Of a DNA stretch of 28,034 nt, positions 16,049 through 23,775 are shown piece after piece; within the stretch, counting starts at the first letter, position 1; the number at the start of each line of letters is the position of its first letter. This DNA comes from Candidatus Hermodarchaeum yapensis (lineage in GTDB: Archaea > Asgardarchaeota > Hermodarchaeia > Hermodarchaeales > Hermodarchaeaceae): assembly GCA_016840405.1 (NCBI GenBank), contig JAEOSK010000034.1:1-28034 (forward strand). The letters are read 5' to 3'. Under the pieces are notes generated by a model that was not told where the DNA came from, made no database searches, and saw only the letters and a list, made by a program, of their open reading frames with translations. Both the position numbers and the translations under genes were made by a program.

Positions 16049-16375
16049 TTACTCTTCTTTTGCTTCCTCTTCTTCCTCGATTTCTTCAAGGGGAATCGGG
16101 GGTGGAGTCGTCAGCATCGTCCAGCCAATCCAAGCCACAATGAAGAGCACCAGCATAATCGCCAGCCACATCGGAATCGCAACGGCGAAATAGGGCTCAA
16201 CCAGAACTGGAATCCAGAAGAAGAATTGCCACCACGGATGAGCGGTTGGATATGCACCAGTTGGATTGACAGAGTAGAACATGAACGGGTAAACAAGAGC
16301 CCAATAGGTGTAATAAAGTACGACTAGAATCGAAAAGAGGAGAATGAGGAAACCATAGATTTTATCTCGTGCCAT
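16049..16375 (-). CDS. two-TM DPM2/PIG-P-like glycosyltransferase accessory protein
   Basis: DKIYGF...YYTYWALVYPF...HPWWQFF...YFAVAIP...GWTMLTTPPP plus acidic tail; motif order matches eukaryotic DPM2 and PIG-P as recalled. Confidence 0.75.
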   Translation of the reverse strand: MARDKIYGFLILLFSILVVLYYTYWALVYPFMFYSVNPTGAYPTAHPWWQFFFWIPVLVEPYFAVAIPMWLAIMLVLFIVAWIGWTMLTTPPPIPLEEIEEEEEAKEE

Positions 16376-16540
16376 AGTAAGTAACCCCTTCTATGAGGGA
16401 ATCTGCGACTGCCTTGCTAATGTCTTGTTATTAAGTCTTACCCACAAGCAGCCCAGATATAACAAAGACAGCCTAACTTTCAAATAAATACTTATGGCCA
16501 CTTTGTTACATTGAGGCTGTGAACGTTGGAACGGTCTAAA

Positions 16541-16705
16541 GTCAACTACCACTGATTGAAATCGGTGGTTTGTACATCACATCCTGCGGTGGTTGGACGC
16601 GGTACGTCTGGGTGGTTGACCGCACCCCGGATCCGCTGCGATCTACGTCAACGGGTCACGGTCACGCCTGCGCGAGAGATGGGCAGGAACCGGGTTGGTG
16701 TGGCT
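16541..16705. ncRNA. stand-alone structured RNA with IS200/IS605 terminal hairpin (HEARO/omega-RNA-like); strand unresolved
   Basis: GC-rich intergenic island. GTCAACTA-CCACTGAT-TGAA-ATCGGTGG-TTTG; GTCAACTACC/GGTGGTTGAC 10-bp closing stem; long hairpin CCGCAC-CCCGG...CCGGG-TTG-GTGTGG; K-loop on the minus strand. Confidence 0.6.
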
Positions 16706-16806
16706 AGAGGTTCTTTTCGCCAGAGCGTATTTAAACTCATAGAGTAAGTTGGGAGTGGTCAATTCCTCCACTGTCTGAAGGTAGTGGTCTCCTTGACCTG
16801 GTTCTC

Positions 16807-17874
16807 ATGAAGGCACTCATTCTAGCTGGAGGCTCTGGTACGCGCTTACGTCCCTTAACGTGTACTCGGTCCAAACAACTCCTTCCGCTCGCCTCCTCCA
16901 CCCTCATTGGATATATGCTCGACCGCCTTCATGATGCTGGCATCTCTGAAGTGATCCTTGCGATAGGACCTGGACTTGACGATCTTCAAGAATCGCTGGG
17001 TGATGGCTCCAATTATAGCATCACTCTGCACTATTCCCTTGAAACACAACCCCTTGGAACAGCAGGGGCAATCAAACATGCAGAACAGCATTTTCGCAAG
17101 GACCAGTCGTTTTTAGCCCTCAACGGTGACATCGTATCCAACATCAACTATACTCAACTCATACAATTCCATGAACAACAACAAGCCATTGCAACAATAG
17201 CCCTTTATCGAGTGGAAGACCCCAGCCGATTTGGCGTCGTTGAAATCGATTCAGAAAGGCGCATCCACAACTTCGTCGAAAAACCCGACCCTCGACACGC
17301 TCCTAGTAATCTAATTAACGCAGGGTGTTACGTCCTCGAGAACACAGTGCTAGAGCATATTCCTGCAAGTCAAGAAGTTTCAATCGAACGGGAAGTTTTT
17401 CCAGCTCTGTGTAAATCTACCAAAGTCTTTGGATGGGAACATCATGGAATTTGGGTCGATACAGGCACACCCGAATCTTTTCTCAAAGCCCAACAAGCAC
17501 TGGTAACAGAAACGGCTCAAATTCCATTAATAGGTGCAAAAACAAAGATTGCCCCATCTGCCATTATTGGGAAAAATGTCACTATCGGTAAACGAGCCAG
17601 AATAGGTCCTAACGCCCATATCAATGATGCAGTGCTGTTTGATGACGTAATCATTGGGGCCGGCGTCACCATCGAGCAATCAATCATTGGACAAGGCGCA
17701 GTGATAGGAAAAGACCTCCAACTCAAAAAACACGTCATCGTCGGGGATGGGGCAATCATTGACTCCGGCGCCAATATTCCTCCGGGCGCGCTCATCTGTC
17801 CTCAATACCATGTGAAAAAAGGTGAAACCCCACCACCCTGCTTTGTGAAGAATTACAAGTCACTCACTGTCTGA
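16807..17874 (+). CDS. NDP-sugar pyrophosphorylase (mannose-1-phosphate guanylyltransferase-like) with left-handed beta-helix domain
   Basis: MKALILAGGSGTRLRPLT, PLGTAGAI, LNGD, FVEKP, INAGCYVL, SIEREVFP, WVDTGTP, hexapeptide repeats. Confidence 0.9.
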   Translation: MKALILAGGSGTRLRPLTCTRSKQLLPLASSTLIGYMLDRLHDAGISEVILAIGPGLDDLQESLGDGSNYSITLHYSLETQPLGTAGAIKHAEQHFRKDQSFLALNGDIVSNINYTQLIQFHEQQQAIATIALYRVEDPSRFGVVEIDSERRIHNFVEKPDPRHAPSNLINAGCYVLENTVLEHIPASQEVSIEREVFPALCKSTKVFGWEHHGIWVDTGTPESFLKAQQALVTETAQIPLIGAKTKIAPSAIIGKNVTIGKRARIGPNAHINDAVLFDDVIIGAGVTIEQSIIGQGAVIGKDLQLKKHVIVGDGAIIDSGANIPPGALICPQYHVKKGETPPPCFVKNYKSLTV

Positions 17875-18540
17875 TGAACTGGAGGGAACCGATGGCGAAA
17901 TCAGGATTCGTACTCGACGATAAGTGGCTATTAGAATACTCGCGAGAGTAATTCCCGTCAGGACAATCGCTGTTGGAACCAACGTAATCCCCCATGGCGT
18001 AAAATTCAATCCAAAGCCAACCAACACCGCCAAAGCAACACTCAACCCACAAGAGAGGGCGAGACGTTCCCAACGATCAATAAATCGTTCAAAGGGAAAC
18101 AAAGCCCGAACAAAAGCAAAACCCGGAACCAAGACCAACAACAATCCACCAAAAATCCAACGTAACACCACTATCGGCCACAGGTCTACAGGAATTAGTA
18201 ACGTAGTAACAAGACCCAAAATCAACAGAACCAGCGTCAACCACAAATCCAAAGCTAGTGTGCTCCCCAGATATTCACACCAGCCCGAAACAGGTGTCAT
18301 CACCGTCTCTTCTGAAGACCCTGGCAGATTAAGAAGCACATACCCCTCTTGGGCTAAGTCTTTGATCATCCGCATCGTGACGCTTTCTGGTACGCCATTT
18401 GTCTTCAACTCCGTGACAACACCTTGAACGGTAGAAAACCGTCGGCTTCGTAGAGCCTCCAGAATTAACTCCCGAACGGTTTCAGGAACATAGGTGTCCT
18501 TTTCACGGAGTAACATAACCGAACCGACCTGACCGACCAT
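17860..18540 (-). CDS. DUF1616-type membrane protein (TM part) with N-terminal winged-helix-like region
   Basis: LRWIFG..LVLVPGFAFVRALFP...ERLALSCGLSVAL...GLNFTPWGI. Confidence 0.85.
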   Translation of the reverse strand: MVGQVGSVMLLREKDTYVPETVRELILEALRSRRFSTVQGVVTELKTNGVPESVTMRMIKDLAQEGYVLLNLPGSSEETVMTPVSGWCEYLGSTLALDLWLTLVLLILGLVTTLLIPVDLWPIVVLRWIFGGLLLVLVPGFAFVRALFPFERFIDRWERLALSCGLSVALAVLVGFGLNFTPWGITLVPTAIVLTGITLASILIATYRRVRILISPSVPSSSSDSE

Positions 18541-18588
18541 TAAGCAAAGATTCTTTTAACCTTTCACTTACCTATTGTTCTGGCGCTT

Positions 18589-19140
18589 ATGCAACGACAT
18601 CCTGCGAACCTAATATTGGCTCTCTTTCTTTTCATGGTCGCTCTAAGCTCGCCTGTGATTGCCTTAACCACTGTCTACTCTTTCAGATATGAACATGTAT
18701 CTTACCAACCCGAAGCGCAAGCACAGCAGGCAATCGATGATGCCCAAAGTGCCATCAACTCTGCCTACACTGACCTGATGCTAGCCGATTCCACAGGGGC
18801 TAGCATTACCGATCTCCTAAGTTCATTGAATGGGGCTATAACCGAGCTTAACCAAGCCCGCTCTGCGTTTAATACCACCGATTACCCCTCCGCAATAACT
18901 CTTGCTGAAAGTGCTCAGGCCACAGCAGATTCAGTCAGCACAGAAGCTTCCGCTCGTCGTTCCGCCACGTTAGTCCAACAACAAGCGCAACTCATCATCA
19001 TTATTGGTGTAGTCATCATCACGGTTTTCATCACCTATTTTGCTCTTACCCGTATTATTCGCTATCAACGAGAGAAAAAGCGGGAGTTCCTACGGATGGA
19101 AATCCGCCTATCCGACGAGGAGGACGGTGAGGATACATGA
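18589..19140 (+). CDS. hypothetical secreted, membrane-anchored helical protein
   Basis: N-terminal signal/TM, Ala-rich helical ectodomain, C-terminal TM and charged tail; stop overlaps the next start (ATGA). Confidence 0.8.
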   Translation: MQRHPANLILALFLFMVALSSPVIALTTVYSFRYEHVSYQPEAQAQQAIDDAQSAINSAYTDLMLADSTGASITDLLSSLNGAITELNQARSAFNTTDYPSAITLAESAQATADSVSTEASARRSATLVQQQAQLIIIIGVVIITVFITYFALTRIIRYQREKKREFLRMEIRLSDEEDGEDT

Positions 19141-19640
19141 AGAAGTACACCCAAACGATTCTCACACTTCTCATGATTGGTCTTGCCGTTGCCACAGGAA
19201 CCTTGCTAGTTTCGGTATGGCTGTTACCACCACCAGAACACACAGCGGTCATTGCGATGTTAAACGAAGACATGGAAGCGGGTCCCTATCCCACCAACGT
19301 CACACAATATTCGAACATCTCGCTCAATATCGAAGTCTACAACTACTTGGGTGTCGTCCAATACTTCTATGTCCGCACCAAACTCGCAAACCAGACCACA
19401 ATGGCAAATGCAACTACACCGTCATCCGCATCAATTATTTTGCAATCTGACAGAATTCTAGCCCATGGTGAAAGATGGGTAATTCCAATTGAACTAAACA
19501 TGACAACCACTGGTACGAATTTCCGTCTCACCTTTGAATTATGGCACTACAACCCGTCCCAAGATGACATAATTTGGGTTCGGAACCAACGTGGCGAAGG
19601 ATTATGGGTTCACCTCCCCCTAAATGTGACCGGACCTTAA
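19137..19640 (+). CDS. DUF1616-type extracellular beta-domain protein
   Basis: N-terminal TM, AGPYPTNVT, VYNYLG..QYFYVRTKL, RLTFELW; several N-x-S/T sequons. Confidence 0.75.
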   Translation: MKKYTQTILTLLMIGLAVATGTLLVSVWLLPPPEHTAVIAMLNEDMEAGPYPTNVTQYSNISLNIEVYNYLGVVQYFYVRTKLANQTTMANATTPSSASIILQSDRILAHGERWVIPIELNMTTTGTNFRLTFELWHYNPSQDDIIWVRNQRGEGLWVHLPLNVTGP

Positions 19641-19683
19641 CCTTACACCAATACCATCTCTAACTCTTGTAGGTGACTGGGTT

Positions 19684-20853
19684 TTGAAACGACGGCTACG
19701 AATTACACAGGTCGTCCATAACTTTCACCCCGTTGTTGGGGGCATTGAAACCTACGCCTACAACCTCGCCAAAGGATTAGTCGATGCTGGACACGAAGTG
19801 AAAGTCTACACGGCACACATCCCTGGGTTCCCCGCATATGAAAACTTGGAAGGTATTCACATTCACCGATTCCATGCAATCGCCCGACCCTTTGGCTATC
19901 CCTTCATCCCTGGGCTCATCCCTGCCCTCACTCGAGATCGCTGTGATGTCCTCCACGCCCACATCAATTCTCCCATGACAGTTGATTTTACCGCTTTTTC
20001 CAGCCGCCTTGTTAACATACCACTCGTCATCACCTATCACGCTGATGCAATCATAAGTGACCTCGCATTGAAAACTCCCGGCTTCCGCCGAATACTCAGC
20101 CAAGTCTATTGGCTCTCCCGACACACCGCCGCAAATATCGCCAAATACCTTATTGTCACCTCCCCCACCTACCTAGAAATATCGCCGTTCTTGCAACGTT
20201 TTCGAGAAAAAACGTCGATAATACCTGCACCCGTAAATCCCTACTATCTAACTCCCATTGAAGACACCCACCAAGCCAAGGCAAACTTGGGCTTCAACAC
20301 CAAAGATCCCTTAATCCTCTTTGTTGGTCGATTAGTTCCATACAAAGGACTGGATACACTTCTTCATGCATTCAAACAAATCCTCTCCCACATACCCACA
20401 ACACAACTAGCCATCGTCGGCTCAGGTCCTCAATTACCAAAGTTGCAAGAAACCTGTCAACAACTGGGAATTAGTAATTCAGTGCATTTTCTTGGCATAC
20501 TCCCTCGGAAAAAACTACGGGATGCCTACACCGCCTGTGATGTTTTTGTTTTACCATCTCGCTCCCGCTCAGAAGCATTCGGCATTGTTCTACTAGAAGC
20601 GATGGCCCGAGCTAAACCTGTTGTCGCCACCAATGTCGGCGGTATCCCCTACGTGGTCAACAATGGAAAAACTGGTCTCCTTGTCCCTCCCTCTGATCAA
20701 ACACACCTCGCTGAAGCTATCACACAACTCCTCTCAAATCCGCAAACCCGTCAGCGCTTAGGTCAAGCAGGTCATCAACGAGTCATCGAACACTTCACTC
20801 GTCCACCTATCACTCGAAAACTCGAAGAACTGTATCTTACCCTCCTCCGGTAA
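19684..20853 (+). CDS. glycosyltransferase family 4 (GT-B, PIG-A-like N terminus)
   Basis: FHPVVGGIETY, GHEVKV, ILFVGRLVPYKG, DVFVLPSRSRSEAFGIVLLEAMA..PVVATNVGG. Confidence 0.93.
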   Translation: MKRRLRITQVVHNFHPVVGGIETYAYNLAKGLVDAGHEVKVYTAHIPGFPAYENLEGIHIHRFHAIARPFGYPFIPGLIPALTRDRCDVLHAHINSPMTVDFTAFSSRLVNIPLVITYHADAIISDLALKTPGFRRILSQVYWLSRHTAANIAKYLIVTSPTYLEISPFLQRFREKTSIIPAPVNPYYLTPIEDTHQAKANLGFNTKDPLILFVGRLVPYKGLDTLLHAFKQILSHIPTTQLAIVGSGPQLPKLQETCQQLGISNSVHFLGILPRKKLRDAYTACDVFVLPSRSRSEAFGIVLLEAMARAKPVVATNVGGIPYVVNNGKTGLLVPPSDQTHLAEAITQLLSNPQTRQRLGQAGHQRVIEHFTRPPITRKLEELYLTLLR

Positions 20854-20881
20854 CACAAATTTTCGATTCACTTCTCTTCGG

Positions 20882-22495
20882 TCAGTCCATCCGTTCAATG
20901 AGCCACGACACAGGTTTCGATAAGGGGTGAAGCACCTCGCTCATGCGAAGCAATGCCGTAACATCTACCGGCTCTAACACACGGGTTTTCCTGAGGCTCC
21001 AAAGATAGAAGATGGAAAGAGGACCGAGTGTAAGAATCATGACCACTTGGAATACCCAGGCTAGCATTCCCACAAGATTCCACAACGTGAGGACAAACCA
21101 TCCGAACATTATCACAATGAGAAAAAGTAGCGCGATCACTACTAACACTCCAATTGTTCGAGGGATGAACCGACCCGTAACCTGGATACCTGTTCGACGC
21201 TGAAACAATAACAGAAAAATCAACAAAAACGGAATACCTGCTAACCAAATCAATGCAACTACGATTTCATGAGCAACAGGACAAAATAACCACAGGAGAA
21301 GAATAATCGACCCAGTCCATGCGGCATACGTCACCAAGACCGCACGGATACTTCCCACACCAATTAGCGTATCCATCATCAAAGCCGTAAGAGGATATAT
21401 CAGAAAACTTCCCGCCATCAACACAAGAAAGGGTGTAGCCACCAAACCTTCAACCGCAAAAAACACAACGAGAACAGGAGCAGCATAAAAGACCACACCA
21501 ACAGCAATGAACGCACTAAACAACAACCCAAGCTTCCACGCCCGATCCATGTATCCCCTAATAGCCGACGATCCTTCCTGTGCCATATCTCCTGACGTCC
21601 GAGGCATTAACACCCGAAACGGCGCCGCTTGTCCTCGTTGTATGTAAACGGCAACACTCATCGCTAAACCTAACCCAGCCAGCATCAAATTGGATGTACG
21701 AAACACATTCGCAATCAAGAGCGGAATATACAGAAACACTGCCCCAAGCAATGCCAACAAAAAAGCTTGTGACGCCGTCGAAATAAACGATCGACGAGTC
21801 GAAGACCAGGACCCAACCGTGAGATTCCTTGGCGGTCTCCTTAATACTACAAAAAGCACGACCACCTCAAAGATAATCGTCACAACAGAAACAACAATGT
21901 TGAACACAATCACTCCCAACAGAGTCATAATTCCCAAAACAAAAATCGTAGTCAACGCGACAAAATACAACCCATGATACAAAGCCATCGCATAAGTAAC
22001 ATACCGCATCCGCTGCAAACCCCGAAAAATACCCTGCAGAACCGTACTTACTGCCGTTAAAGGAACGGTCAACAACGCCAATTGCAAAAACGGCAACACA
22101 CCCACCGGAATTAACACACCTGGTGGAAACCAAGCAAGAACCAAATTAACAAGCACAACAATTCCAAGACTCGCTAACAATGACGCAACCACCGACCAAC
22201 CTATCAACCGATAAAAAGACAAAGATCGACGGTTCACCACCTCGGGTACATGTTTCATTAAAGCGACATCAATACCCATAATCCCAACCGGGATAAGCAC
22301 ACTCACCCACGCAAATACAAGAATGTAAATATAAAATTCGTAAACTGGTACGGTAGGTAATCCACGGACGACTAAAATCGAAGATACCACACCAAAGACA
22401 ATCGCCACAAAGATGGTTACGGCTTCTGCTACAATATTTTGAACAAAAAGCTGTTCCGAATCACTGCGAGCTCGCTTCACTGGTTCTCCAGACAC
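20882..22495 (-). CDS. polysaccharide/oligosaccharide flippase (MOP superfamily, Wzx-like)
   Basis: 537 aa with about 12-14 hydrophobic segments; GIDVALMKHV, LQGIFRGLQRM; between two GT4 genes. Confidence 0.8.
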   Translation of the reverse strand: MSGEPVKRARSDSEQLFVQNIVAEAVTIFVAIVFGVVSSILVVRGLPTVPVYEFYIYILVFAWVSVLIPVGIMGIDVALMKHVPEVVNRRSLSFYRLIGWSVVASLLASLGIVVLVNLVLAWFPPGVLIPVGVLPFLQLALLTVPLTAVSTVLQGIFRGLQRMRYVTYAMALYHGLYFVALTTIFVLGIMTLLGVIVFNIVVSVVTIIFEVVVLFVVLRRPPRNLTVGSWSSTRRSFISTASQAFLLALLGAVFLYIPLLIANVFRTSNLMLAGLGLAMSVAVYIQRGQAAPFRVLMPRTSGDMAQEGSSAIRGYMDRAWKLGLLFSAFIAVGVVFYAAPVLVVFFAVEGLVATPFLVLMAGSFLIYPLTALMMDTLIGVGSIRAVLVTYAAWTGSIILLLWLFCPVAHEIVVALIWLAGIPFLLIFLLLFQRRTGIQVTGRFIPRTIGVLVVIALLFLIVIMFGWFVLTLWNLVGMLAWVFQVVMILTLGPLSIFYLWSLRKTRVLEPVDVTALLRMSEVLHPLSKPVSWLIERMD

Positions 22496-23640
22496 GCTTG
22501 ATACACTCCTTCGGTGAGCTCACTAGTACGCTCCCAGTTATGATGGTCTCTCACATACTGCTGACCGAATTTACCCATCTGCTCAAGTTCCGAACGACGA
22601 GCCTGCCACTCATCCAATGCTTGGGTAATGCAATCCGCTTCAGGTGATTCCAATGTAATACCCCATTGGCTCTGAAGAAACTCCGTGACCCCACCCACAC
22701 CTGTCGCCAACACCGGAGTACCCGCAGCAAGAGCCTCAAGAAGCGTAGTGGGAAGCGTTTCAGCAAAAGACGGAATCACATACAAATCCAACGACGCCAT
22801 AAAACCAGGCATATTCTGGTGGTCCAACTGCCCAAGAAAATGTACATGGCTGAGCCCCGCTTCTTTTACAAACTCTTCCCATTTGTGTTGGGACAAGGCT
22901 CCGCCAGCAACAAGTAGATGCAAGTGTTTAACCGATTTCAGCCGGGTCATCGCTTCCAGTAACTGGTCAAACCCTTTATCCTGCGTTAAAGCTCCCGCAT
23001 ACCCAACAACAAACGCATCCACTGACAACTTCAGTTGATGGCGGAACCGCGCCTCCACCTTAGAATGAAATCGCGTAACATCAACGGCATGCGGCACATA
23101 CACAATACGCTCTACAGGTACCCCCTCTCCAACAAGAATCTCCTCCGATCGGCGCGTCAGACAAATAATACGCGAAAAAGGTCGTCGATACCCCCGTGAT
23201 TCCAAGTAGCGAAATAGCCGAGAACGACCAGGCCCCGGCTCTAAATGTGTCCATTGTTCTTCCACATGCGACAATACTGACGCAATGACAGGCACCCCTA
23301 ATTCAGAACCTGCACGTAGAGCTGCCTCTGAGGCTATCGGCGGCACGGTATGAATAACATTAGGACGCCACTCTCGAGCAAAAGCCCGAACACCAGGCAC
23401 AAAACGTCGTCGAAAAACGTACCGGCTGAGTAATGTGGATAACGAACGGCTCCGAAGATTCAATCGGACAGGTAGAAGCCCCACTGTATTTGGTGAAGCA
23501 AATTCTCCATTCTTAGGAGTGCCACTAAGAATTACCACCTCATGCCCACGTTGAATCAGCCCCTTGCTAAGCTGAGCCCAATACATAGGGCCACCCCCTG
23601 CCTGCTTAGCATGTGATTCAACAACCATCAGAACCTTCAC
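22477..23640 (-). CDS. glycosyltransferase family 4 (GT-B)
   Basis: VKVLMV..GGG, RGHEVVIL, VGYAGAL..DKG, DLYVIPSFAETLPTTLLEALAAGTPVLATGVGG; GTG start at 23640 inferred. Confidence 0.92.
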   Translation of the reverse strand: MKVLMVVESHAKQAGGGPMYWAQLSKGLIQRGHEVVILSGTPKNGEFASPNTVGLLPVRLNLRSRSLSTLLSRYVFRRRFVPGVRAFAREWRPNVIHTVPPIASEAALRAGSELGVPVIASVLSHVEEQWTHLEPGPGRSRLFRYLESRGYRRPFSRIICLTRRSEEILVGEGVPVERIVYVPHAVDVTRFHSKVEARFRHQLKLSVDAFVVGYAGALTQDKGFDQLLEAMTRLKSVKHLHLLVAGGALSQHKWEEFVKEAGLSHVHFLGQLDHQNMPGFMASLDLYVIPSFAETLPTTLLEALAAGTPVLATGVGGVTEFLQSQWGITLESPEADCITQALDEWQARRSELEQMGKFGQQYVRDHHNWERTSELTEGVYQACLENQ

Positions 23641-23775
23641 GAATGCTTCCACCACAAGATTCAACGCACAAGTCAATGCAGAGAATGACAGATACCAGGT
23701 TACGCTATTATTCGGAATTATTATAAAACCTTGGACAAGCCAGTACACCTATAGAATACGATTAGGTGAACAATT

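Follow-up and report, generated by a model that had tools for sequence, protein, structure and literature searches.

DPM2 and PIG-P are small two-helix subunits of two enzymes of the eukaryotic endoplasmic reticulum (ER), the dolichol-phosphate-mannose (Dol-P-Man) synthase and the glycosylphosphatidylinositol (GPI)-GlcNAc transferase (GPI-GnT), respectively. Human DPM1 has no membrane helices of its own and needs DPM2 and DPM3, and the Pyrococcus enzyme carries four fused helices (PMC5526996). A proteoarchaeal origin has been inferred for the DPM1 that lacks a membrane helix (Lombard, PMC4973528), and the split between DPM2 and PIGP has been traced to a duplication of archaeal origin that predates the last eukaryotic common ancestor (LECA) (Kay et al., Nature 2025, PMC12872463). 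Here, we analyse a gene of the DPM2/PIG-P family and its neighbours in the Asgard archaeon Candidatus Hermodarchaeum yapensis (assembly GCA_016840405.1, contig JAEOSK010000034.1). The window, by which we mean the whole 28,034-nucleotide stretch that was analysed, is one contig (C20) of a 2.7-Mb, 77-contig metagenome-assembled genome that is 86% complete. Its proteins share 92-95% identity with proteins labelled Hermodarchaeota or Promethearchaeota, as befits an Asgard archaeon. A sequence-only reading of positions 16,049 to 23,640 had proposed an archaeal forerunner of GPI-GnT or an ER-type glycolipid pathway. On balance, we believe instead that the genes here form an ordinary archaeal cluster for the assembly of glycans, be it for N-glycosylation or for surface glycans, and that they adjoin a single-copy gene of the DPM2/PIG-P family.

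The gene content of the cluster is the first argument for this view, and every gene that the sequence-only reading had named was found at or near the place it gave. The small DPM2/PIG-P-like gene (16049-16375, minus strand) is indeed divergent from a sugar-1-phosphate nucleotidyltransferase gene (16807-17874, plus strand). The product of the latter combines an NTP_transferase domain with a left-handed beta-helix (Pfam, NCBIfam), and its best solved relative is human GMPPB (7d72, E 4.9e-48), matched over the full length (residues 1-341), so that by family and architecture it is probably a GDP-mannose pyrophosphorylase. GT4a (19684-20853, plus strand) is a soluble glycosyltransferase of the GT-B fold family (Pfam Glycos_transf_1, E 1.7e-53), the N terminus of which reads NFHPVVGGIETYAYNLAKGLVDAGHEV, just as had been quoted. 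The second GT4, GT4b (22477-23748, minus strand), is divergent (Glycos_transf_1, E 4.2e-28); since its relatives span just ~93% of the open reading frame, the real start is probably near 23640. Between the two lies a polytopic MOP/Wzx-like membrane protein of 537 aa (20882-22495, minus strand), a probable flippase for lipid-linked glycans, in which hydropathy marks seven long hydrophobic blocks, enough for ~12-14 helices. Its Polysacc_synt match is near the threshold (26.7 bits, just below the 28.2 cut-off), and Pfam gave no Rft1 match at E < 0.1.

The small membrane-anchored proteins of the sequence-only reading are also there, three in number. The first (17860-18540, minus strand; 226 aa) begins with a soluble part, after which comes the N-terminal transmembrane region of DUF1616 (Pfam, E 2.9e-22, profile positions 4-120). 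The second (18589-19140, plus strand; 183 aa) has, by hydropathy, one hydrophobic helix at each end, the N terminus being hydrophobic and the C-terminal helix a transmembrane one. The third (19137-19640, plus strand; 167 aa) has one N-terminal transmembrane helix and matches DUF1616 in its C-terminal, outer part (E 3.5e-9, profile positions 151-287). With six N-X-S/T sequons, this protein is likely an N-glycoprotein; a DUF1616 protein of Haloferax is a known glycoprotein whose glycosylation depends on AglB (PMC8241124).

The second argument comes from the rest of the genome, which has just three Glycos_transf_1 genes, namely GT4a, GT4b, and BshA. The remainder of its glycan-related set consists of two GT2s, five NTP_transferases, one AglH/ALG7-like gene, and one STT3/AglB. 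Within so sparse a glycosyltransferase set, the window thus holds the sole non-BshA GT4s of the assembled genome, and next to them are encoded a GMPPB-like enzyme and a flippase-like protein. We propose that the cluster would work as follows. First, an AglH-like enzyme would prime the lipid carrier, and the GMPPB-like enzyme would make the nucleotide sugar, most likely GDP-mannose. The soluble GT4a and GT4b would then lengthen the dolichol-linked glycan on the cytoplasmic face of the membrane, after which the MOP-type protein would flip the lipid-linked glycan. Finally, AglB/STT3, encoded on another contig, would move the glycan onto surface proteins, for example, the sequon-rich DUF1616-type protein of the cluster itself.

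In addition, elsewhere in the genome (contig C28, 37478-40150; L089 7479-10151) the gene of the second GT2, a protein of 235 aa, converges on that of a 249-aa NTP_transferase; the GT2 is followed by a flippase-like protein of the LPG_synthase_TM family. These genes form a compact group, which is a candidate for both the synthesis of a lipid-linked sugar and its flipping.

The small gene encodes a protein of 108 aa with two transmembrane helices and the conserved tail WIGWTMLTTPPPIPLEEIEEEE. Its membership of the DPM2/PIG-P family follows from profile searches: it matches the Pfam PIG-P model (PF08510) with E 1.1e-7, at 32.2 bits, under the 39.3 cut-off, and the DPM2 model (PF07297) with E 3.6e-6, at 27.6 bits, marginally over the 27.3 cut-off. 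Among 26 diverse relatives, 21 match DPM2 and 18 match PIG-P at E <= 0.001 (best 2.2e-14 and 5.2e-11, respectively), and the only other families reached at that level are MARVEL and a holin family, with four of the 26 each. The DPM2 model found no second match in the genome and none in 14 control genomes. AlphaFold2, run with the family alignment, placed helices at residues 2-36 and 61-89 and an acidic C-terminal helix at 96-107, with a mean predicted local distance difference test (pLDDT) score of 84; hydropathy also gives two hydrophobic helices. The tail that follows the second helix, WIGWTM(L/A)TTPPPxPxEE, is invariant in the 26 relatives and almost invariant across phyla. The family profile matched neither DPM2, PIG-P, nor 5mlz among the solved structures at E <= 10, and with Foldseek no PDB entry matched the model at an E-value under 2.7, a comparison that is uninformative for a helical hairpin. 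When a library of representatives was searched with the family profile, the best 150 of 470 matches were all of the archaeal type in length.

The kinship of this protein with DPM2 and PIG-P is not new, as it is already published and annotated; a Thorarchaeota cluster of the family carries the automatic name 'Dolichol phosphate-mannose biosynthesis regulatory protein'. The family was found in 132 of the 151 sampled Asgard genomes (69/72 of those of high quality; 49/52 genera) and in 126 of 151 sampled Thermoproteota genomes, with up to five paralogues per genome and at least 364 species representatives in all. The small protein is therefore a near-universal protein of Asgard and Thermoproteota archaea and is not specific to the glycan cluster. 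The family is expanded to four to five paralogues in one bathyarchaeotal genome (G151) and one genome of the Thermoproteota (G210), where some of the paralogues head runs of glycan genes. This expansion suggests that each transferase may have a helper of its own, in the way that eukaryotes have DPM2 and PIG-P.

As for its function, the small two-helix protein would most likely be an accessory membrane subunit of a polyprenol-phosphate sugar transferase, and not a partner of PIG-A. The sequence-only reading had itself cautioned that neither a DPM1-like GT2 nor a PIG-L lies within the window, which is correct, and both kinds are encoded elsewhere in the genome. The best candidate partner would be the DPM1-like GT2 on contig C3 (79943-80635), a protein of 231 aa in which hydropathy finds no hydrophobic helix. 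Its best solved match is the catalytic domain of the Dol-P-Man synthase of P. furiosus (5mlz, E 9e-21), and its best NCBIfam matches, PpgS and AglJ, are both under the cut-off. Of 36 Asgard orthologues at 48% identity or more, 35 have open frames of 221-263 aa. Since the C3 GT2 is without membrane helices, the arrangement would resemble the split Dol-P-Man synthase of the human type, and such a split synthase, in which a soluble GT2 would work with a DPM2-like hairpin, appears to be the best-supported mechanism for the small protein. Tentatively, we propose that the small protein is the membrane partner of a DPM1-like GT2, that the multi-subunit, human-type design of Dol-P-Man synthase was already present in the Asgard/TACK ancestor and was inherited by eukaryotes, and that in this lineage the small gene is co-regulated with the supply of GDP-mannose through a short divergent promoter region shared by the two genes and a conserved leader of ~85 nt. 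Taken as a whole, we hold this proposal to be possible, if doubtful. If it is true, the split design of the eukaryotic Dol-P-Man synthase predates eukaryotes, which would connect archaeal with ER glycosylation in a concrete and testable way.

Several results weigh against our reading. The nucleotidyltransferase scores 293.5 bits with the NCBIfam man1P_GTase model, below the 440 cut-off, and the sugars assigned to this enzyme, to the GT4s and to the C3 GT2 are putative only. DPM3 (PF08285) gave no match at E <= 0.1 in the 86%-complete genome. The gene for the DPM1-like GT2 is not linked to the small gene, either here or in most Asgard genomes, and a GT2 adjoins the small gene in just ~5 of 80 loci, which is near the level that chance could possibly produce. 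Moreover, some of the GT2s found in runs with the small gene carry membrane helices of their own, so that anchoring cannot be the whole role of the small protein. Lastly, the PMT_2, GT22, and PIG-M models detected no separate GT-C enzyme that would use Dol-P-Man in this 86%-complete genome, other GT-C families not having been searched.

The region upstream of the small gene bears on the proposed co-regulation. Across the genus, the gene is preceded by a conserved promoter-like box, ATAAGTATTTAT, and then a leader of ~85 nt; in this genome, these occupy positions 16376-16500 on the minus strand, as delimited by alignments of 4 and 16 upstream regions. In 13 aligned genomes of the genus the nucleotide conservation of the leader exceeds that of the start of the coding region, and it is partly kept in a sister genus. 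A CCC...GGG hairpin within the leader adjoins a GGGG run that resembles a Shine-Dalgarno sequence. RNAalifold found just this 3-bp CCC/GGG hairpin in the leader, with no covariation, and no Rfam family matched; in the window as a whole, the sole Rfam family over threshold is a tRNA elsewhere. Between the leader and the nucleotidyltransferase lies a GC-rich insertion of 265 bp (16542-16806), delimited by alignment with relatives, in which no Rfam family reached threshold. It is missing from the closest relative (L002), whose small protein is 98% identical, and from two further loci (L003 and L006). In the aligned relatives without it, the small and GMPPB-like genes diverge over just ~150-190 bp. 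Directly 5' of the GMPPB-like start codon, the insertion separates that gene from the shared divergent promoter region; it overlaps a feature that the sequence-only reading had noted separately as 'omega-RNA-like'.

The explanation that competes best with ours is that the small gene is a coincidental neighbour, its product being a housekeeping membrane protein that partners another enzyme (such as AglH/ALG7 or AglB) or has a role unrelated to glycans. We compared 80 loci that carry the small gene. The order of the GMPPB-like gene, DUF1616 pieces, GT4, MOP, and GT4 beside it is kept in the five closest loci only (L002-L006), all from the Hermodarchaeota-like family. Conservation of the neighbourhood, which the sequence-only reading had suggested as a check, thus holds for the full order within this family and not beyond it. 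What is more, the flanks of the window are housekeeping genes, namely those for an NOL1/NOP2-type methyltransferase, stalk protein P1, FKBP, UPF0179, and an intein-bearing aCPSF1, together with a HypC-like gene between the small gene and the methyltransferase that was recognised by eye from its sequence. As these unrelated flanks also keep the same order in L002-L006, the linkage with the GT4s and the flippase is lineage synteny and not functional evidence. Elsewhere, the neighbours can be quite different: S-adenosylhomocysteine hydrolase is upstream of the small gene in most Bathyarchaeia, and NAD synthetase and triose-phosphate isomerase stand beside it in Methanomethylicota. The absence of linkage to a GT2 in most genomes also fits a coincidence.

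Against coincidence, genes related to sugars stand beside the small gene repeatedly, in no fewer than five distinct lineages or arrangements. In Thorarchaeota (10 loci), a phosphoglucomutase/phosphomannomutase (PMM/PGM) gene is convergent with the small gene; in four Bathyarchaeia loci, a short NTP_transferase is immediately downstream of it; in one Helarchaeota locus, a GT4 is divergent from it; and in one Jordarchaeia locus, a CE4 deacetylase is beside it. Five paralogue loci of Bathyarchaeia (L044, L053, L056, L066, and L114) have a GT2 of 240-277 aa without membrane helices near the small gene, accompanied in all except L056 by proteins of the three DUF1616-type kinds seen in the window. 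In G210 there are two same-strand runs, one comprising the small gene, epimerases, a DPMS-like GT2, and UDP-GlcNAc 2-epimerase, and the other the small gene, two NTP_transferases, an epimerase, and a GT2. The link of the small gene with sugar-activating and GT2 genes therefore recurs in several separate lineages, while being far from universal. Given these recurrences, that NTP_transferases and/or epimerases followed by a GT2 make up two same-strand runs, that in aligned relatives the divergent small and GMPPB-like genes are so closely spaced, and that the small protein is homologous to two eukaryotic subunits of lipid-linked sugar transferases, we think it rather unlikely that the small gene is merely a bystander.

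The DUF1616-type genes have an association of their own. The pair 18589-19140 and 19137-19640 recurs in Hermod loci and in the Bathyarchaeota loci L044, L053, L054, and L114; in L044, L053, and L114 the pair directly follows the GT2 without membrane helices. In the Bathyarchaeota locus L066, a gene for a relative of the 17860-18540 protein lies on the strand of the small gene and overlaps the start of the latter.

GT4s, a MOP protein of the Polysacc_synt kind, and a nucleotidyltransferase are also the classic content of exopolysaccharide (EPS) and O-antigen loci. One could thus propose that, through a pathway of the Wzx type, the cluster gives rise to a glycolipid or to a polysaccharide that is secreted or forms a capsule, and not to the precursor of an N-glycan. 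In keeping with this, the top NCBIfam matches of GT4a and GT4b are enzymes of EPS and PEP-CTERM systems, all of them under their cut-offs. However, the window shows no evident Wzy-like polymerase and no chain-length regulator, the GT4s of the cluster are the only non-BshA ones in a genome that has both AglB and an AglH-like primer, and one gene of the cluster encodes a surface protein rich in sequons. We consider a Wzx-type polysaccharide locus improbable on these grounds. A glycan-assembly cluster, as favoured here, agrees with part of what the sequence-only reading had suggested: a lipid-linked pathway is plausible in a broad sense, as the small-gene family stands beside sugar-nucleotide and GT2 genes in several lineages. 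The pathway would nonetheless be that of an ordinary archaeal cluster for dolichol-linked glycans, which deserves the name 'ER-type' solely because the pathway of the ER evolved from that of archaea.

The least tenable idea is that the small protein and GT4a form a complex like that of PIG-A and PIG-P, which transfers GlcNAc to archaetidylinositol, and that the cluster builds a GPI-like glycolipid. There are points in its favour. The match between the PIG-P profile and the small protein takes in the tail as well, and among the GT4s of this genome GT4a is the closest relative of those Asgard GT4s that match the PIGA model (28-31% identity, to be compared with 33-35% between two well-separated groups of the latter). 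The N terminus of GT4a is partly like the CM1 motif of PIG-A, the CM1a form of which is D-[FTW]-[FHY]-[YFCP]-[PS]-x-x-[GD]-G-[VI] (PMC2446393). The genome also has two matches to inositol-1-phosphate synthase, so that inositol lipids are possible; nothing ties these two genes to the glycan locus.

Given that the model of the PIGA domain (PF08288) hits neither GT4 of the cluster (E < 0.1), nor anything else in the 86%-complete genome, nor any of the 120 best GT4a homologues, that GT4a falls in a supported clade apart from those with the PIGA domain and by eye fails three of the eight specified positions of CM1a, that no PIG-C, PIG-M, or GT22 was found and the PIG-L-family genes are BshB-like, that the small protein occurs in 132 of 151 Asgard genomes as against 10 with a PIGA-domain match, and that the linkage with GT4s is confined to one family with general synteny, we believe this forerunner of GPI-GnT to be very improbable and, on membership, already largely refuted.

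The details are as follows. The names of the 120 homologues in the source are generic ('family 4', 'rhamnosyl/mannosyltransferase'). Of the 10 sampled Asgard genomes with a PIGA-domain match, 4 are above the cut-off, and none is among the 18 of this family; the small protein thus exists almost everywhere without PIG-A. At CM1a, GT4a reads H-N-F-H-P-V-V-G-G-I, failing at positions 1, 2, and 4. A GT4 phylogeny had been suggested as a check. In a quick maximum-likelihood tree of GT4s, which has an unresolved backbone and includes no eukaryotic PIG-A, GT4a lies within a clade of non-PIGA GT4s with 99% support, outside the two clades that hold PF08288-positive Asgard GT4s, and GT4b forms a long isolated branch. 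GPI2/PIG-C, PIG-M, and GT22 were not found in the genome, and the PIG-M and GT22 models had no match in any control genome either; PIG-H, PIG-Q, and PIG-Y were not searched.

The GT4s of a few Asgard lineages that do match the PIGA model deserve mention in their own right, among them two above the cut-off (L090 from G048 and L092 from G029) and one just below it (L093 from G021). Their N termini come very close to the CM1 motif of PIG-A, for example, DWYYPKIGGI and TDFFLPEYGGIQTHVY; by eye, the reading D-W-Y-Y-P-K-I-G-G-I of the GT4 in L090 fits CM1a. A protein search seeded with the most PIG-A-like of them (L093) returned archaeal and bacterial GT4s only. These proteins are a better place than GT4a to seek an archaeal GlcNAc-inositol-lipid transferase.

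Both PIG-L-family genes of the genome are BshB-like. One is a deacetylase gene divergent from a GT4 gene (the two at contig C67, 59178-61075; L087 5176-7075). That pair was considered as a GlcN-inositol pathway and ruled out, as its GT4 is a BshA equivalog (388.9 bits, cut-off 273.7). The other, on contig C58, follows an MFS transporter. Together, these genes look like a putative pathway of the bacillithiol type (GlcN-malate) in an Asgard archaeon.

The main value of this analysis is negative, in that it removes the reading of the locus as a GPI forerunner, and it also names a candidate partner GT2 for the small protein on contig C3. The lipid-linked-sugar reading of the cluster is plausible but ordinary, and the cluster is of modest interest.

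Among the known systems, PIG-A is the catalytic GT4 subunit of GPI-GnT. GT4a belongs to the GT4 family as well, with the GT-B fold, a C-terminal domain of the EX7E type, and, near the N terminus, a loop P-x-x-G-G-I-E that is rich in Gly; unlike PIG-A, it lacks the PIGA domain, departs from CM1a, and branches with non-PIGA GT4s. The small protein has the size and the two transmembrane helices of DPM2 and PIG-P and significant profile matches to both over both helices, the match to PIG-P extending over the tail that follows the second helix. In contrast to them, the archaeal family has its invariant tail and acidic C-terminal helix, and here it occurs without PIG-A, PIG-C, or DPM3. The archaeal small-protein profile misses the membrane domain of the fused, type III enzyme of P. 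furiosus (5mlz). As in the type II synthase of humans (DPM1/DPM2/DPM3), the C3 GT2 is free of membrane helices and a two-helix protein like DPM2 is encoded separately, in a genome that also has a GMPPB-like enzyme; the genome differs in that DPM3 was not found and that separate contigs carry the small gene and the GT2. Finally, while no Agl equivalog model reaches its cut-off here and AglB is not in the cluster, the archaeal Agl N-glycosylation clusters share with this locus a nucleotidyltransferase (compare AglF), soluble glycosyltransferases, a MOP-type flippase, here a probable one (compare AglR), and genes for surface glycoproteins, in a genome that has both AglB and an AglH-like gene outside the cluster.

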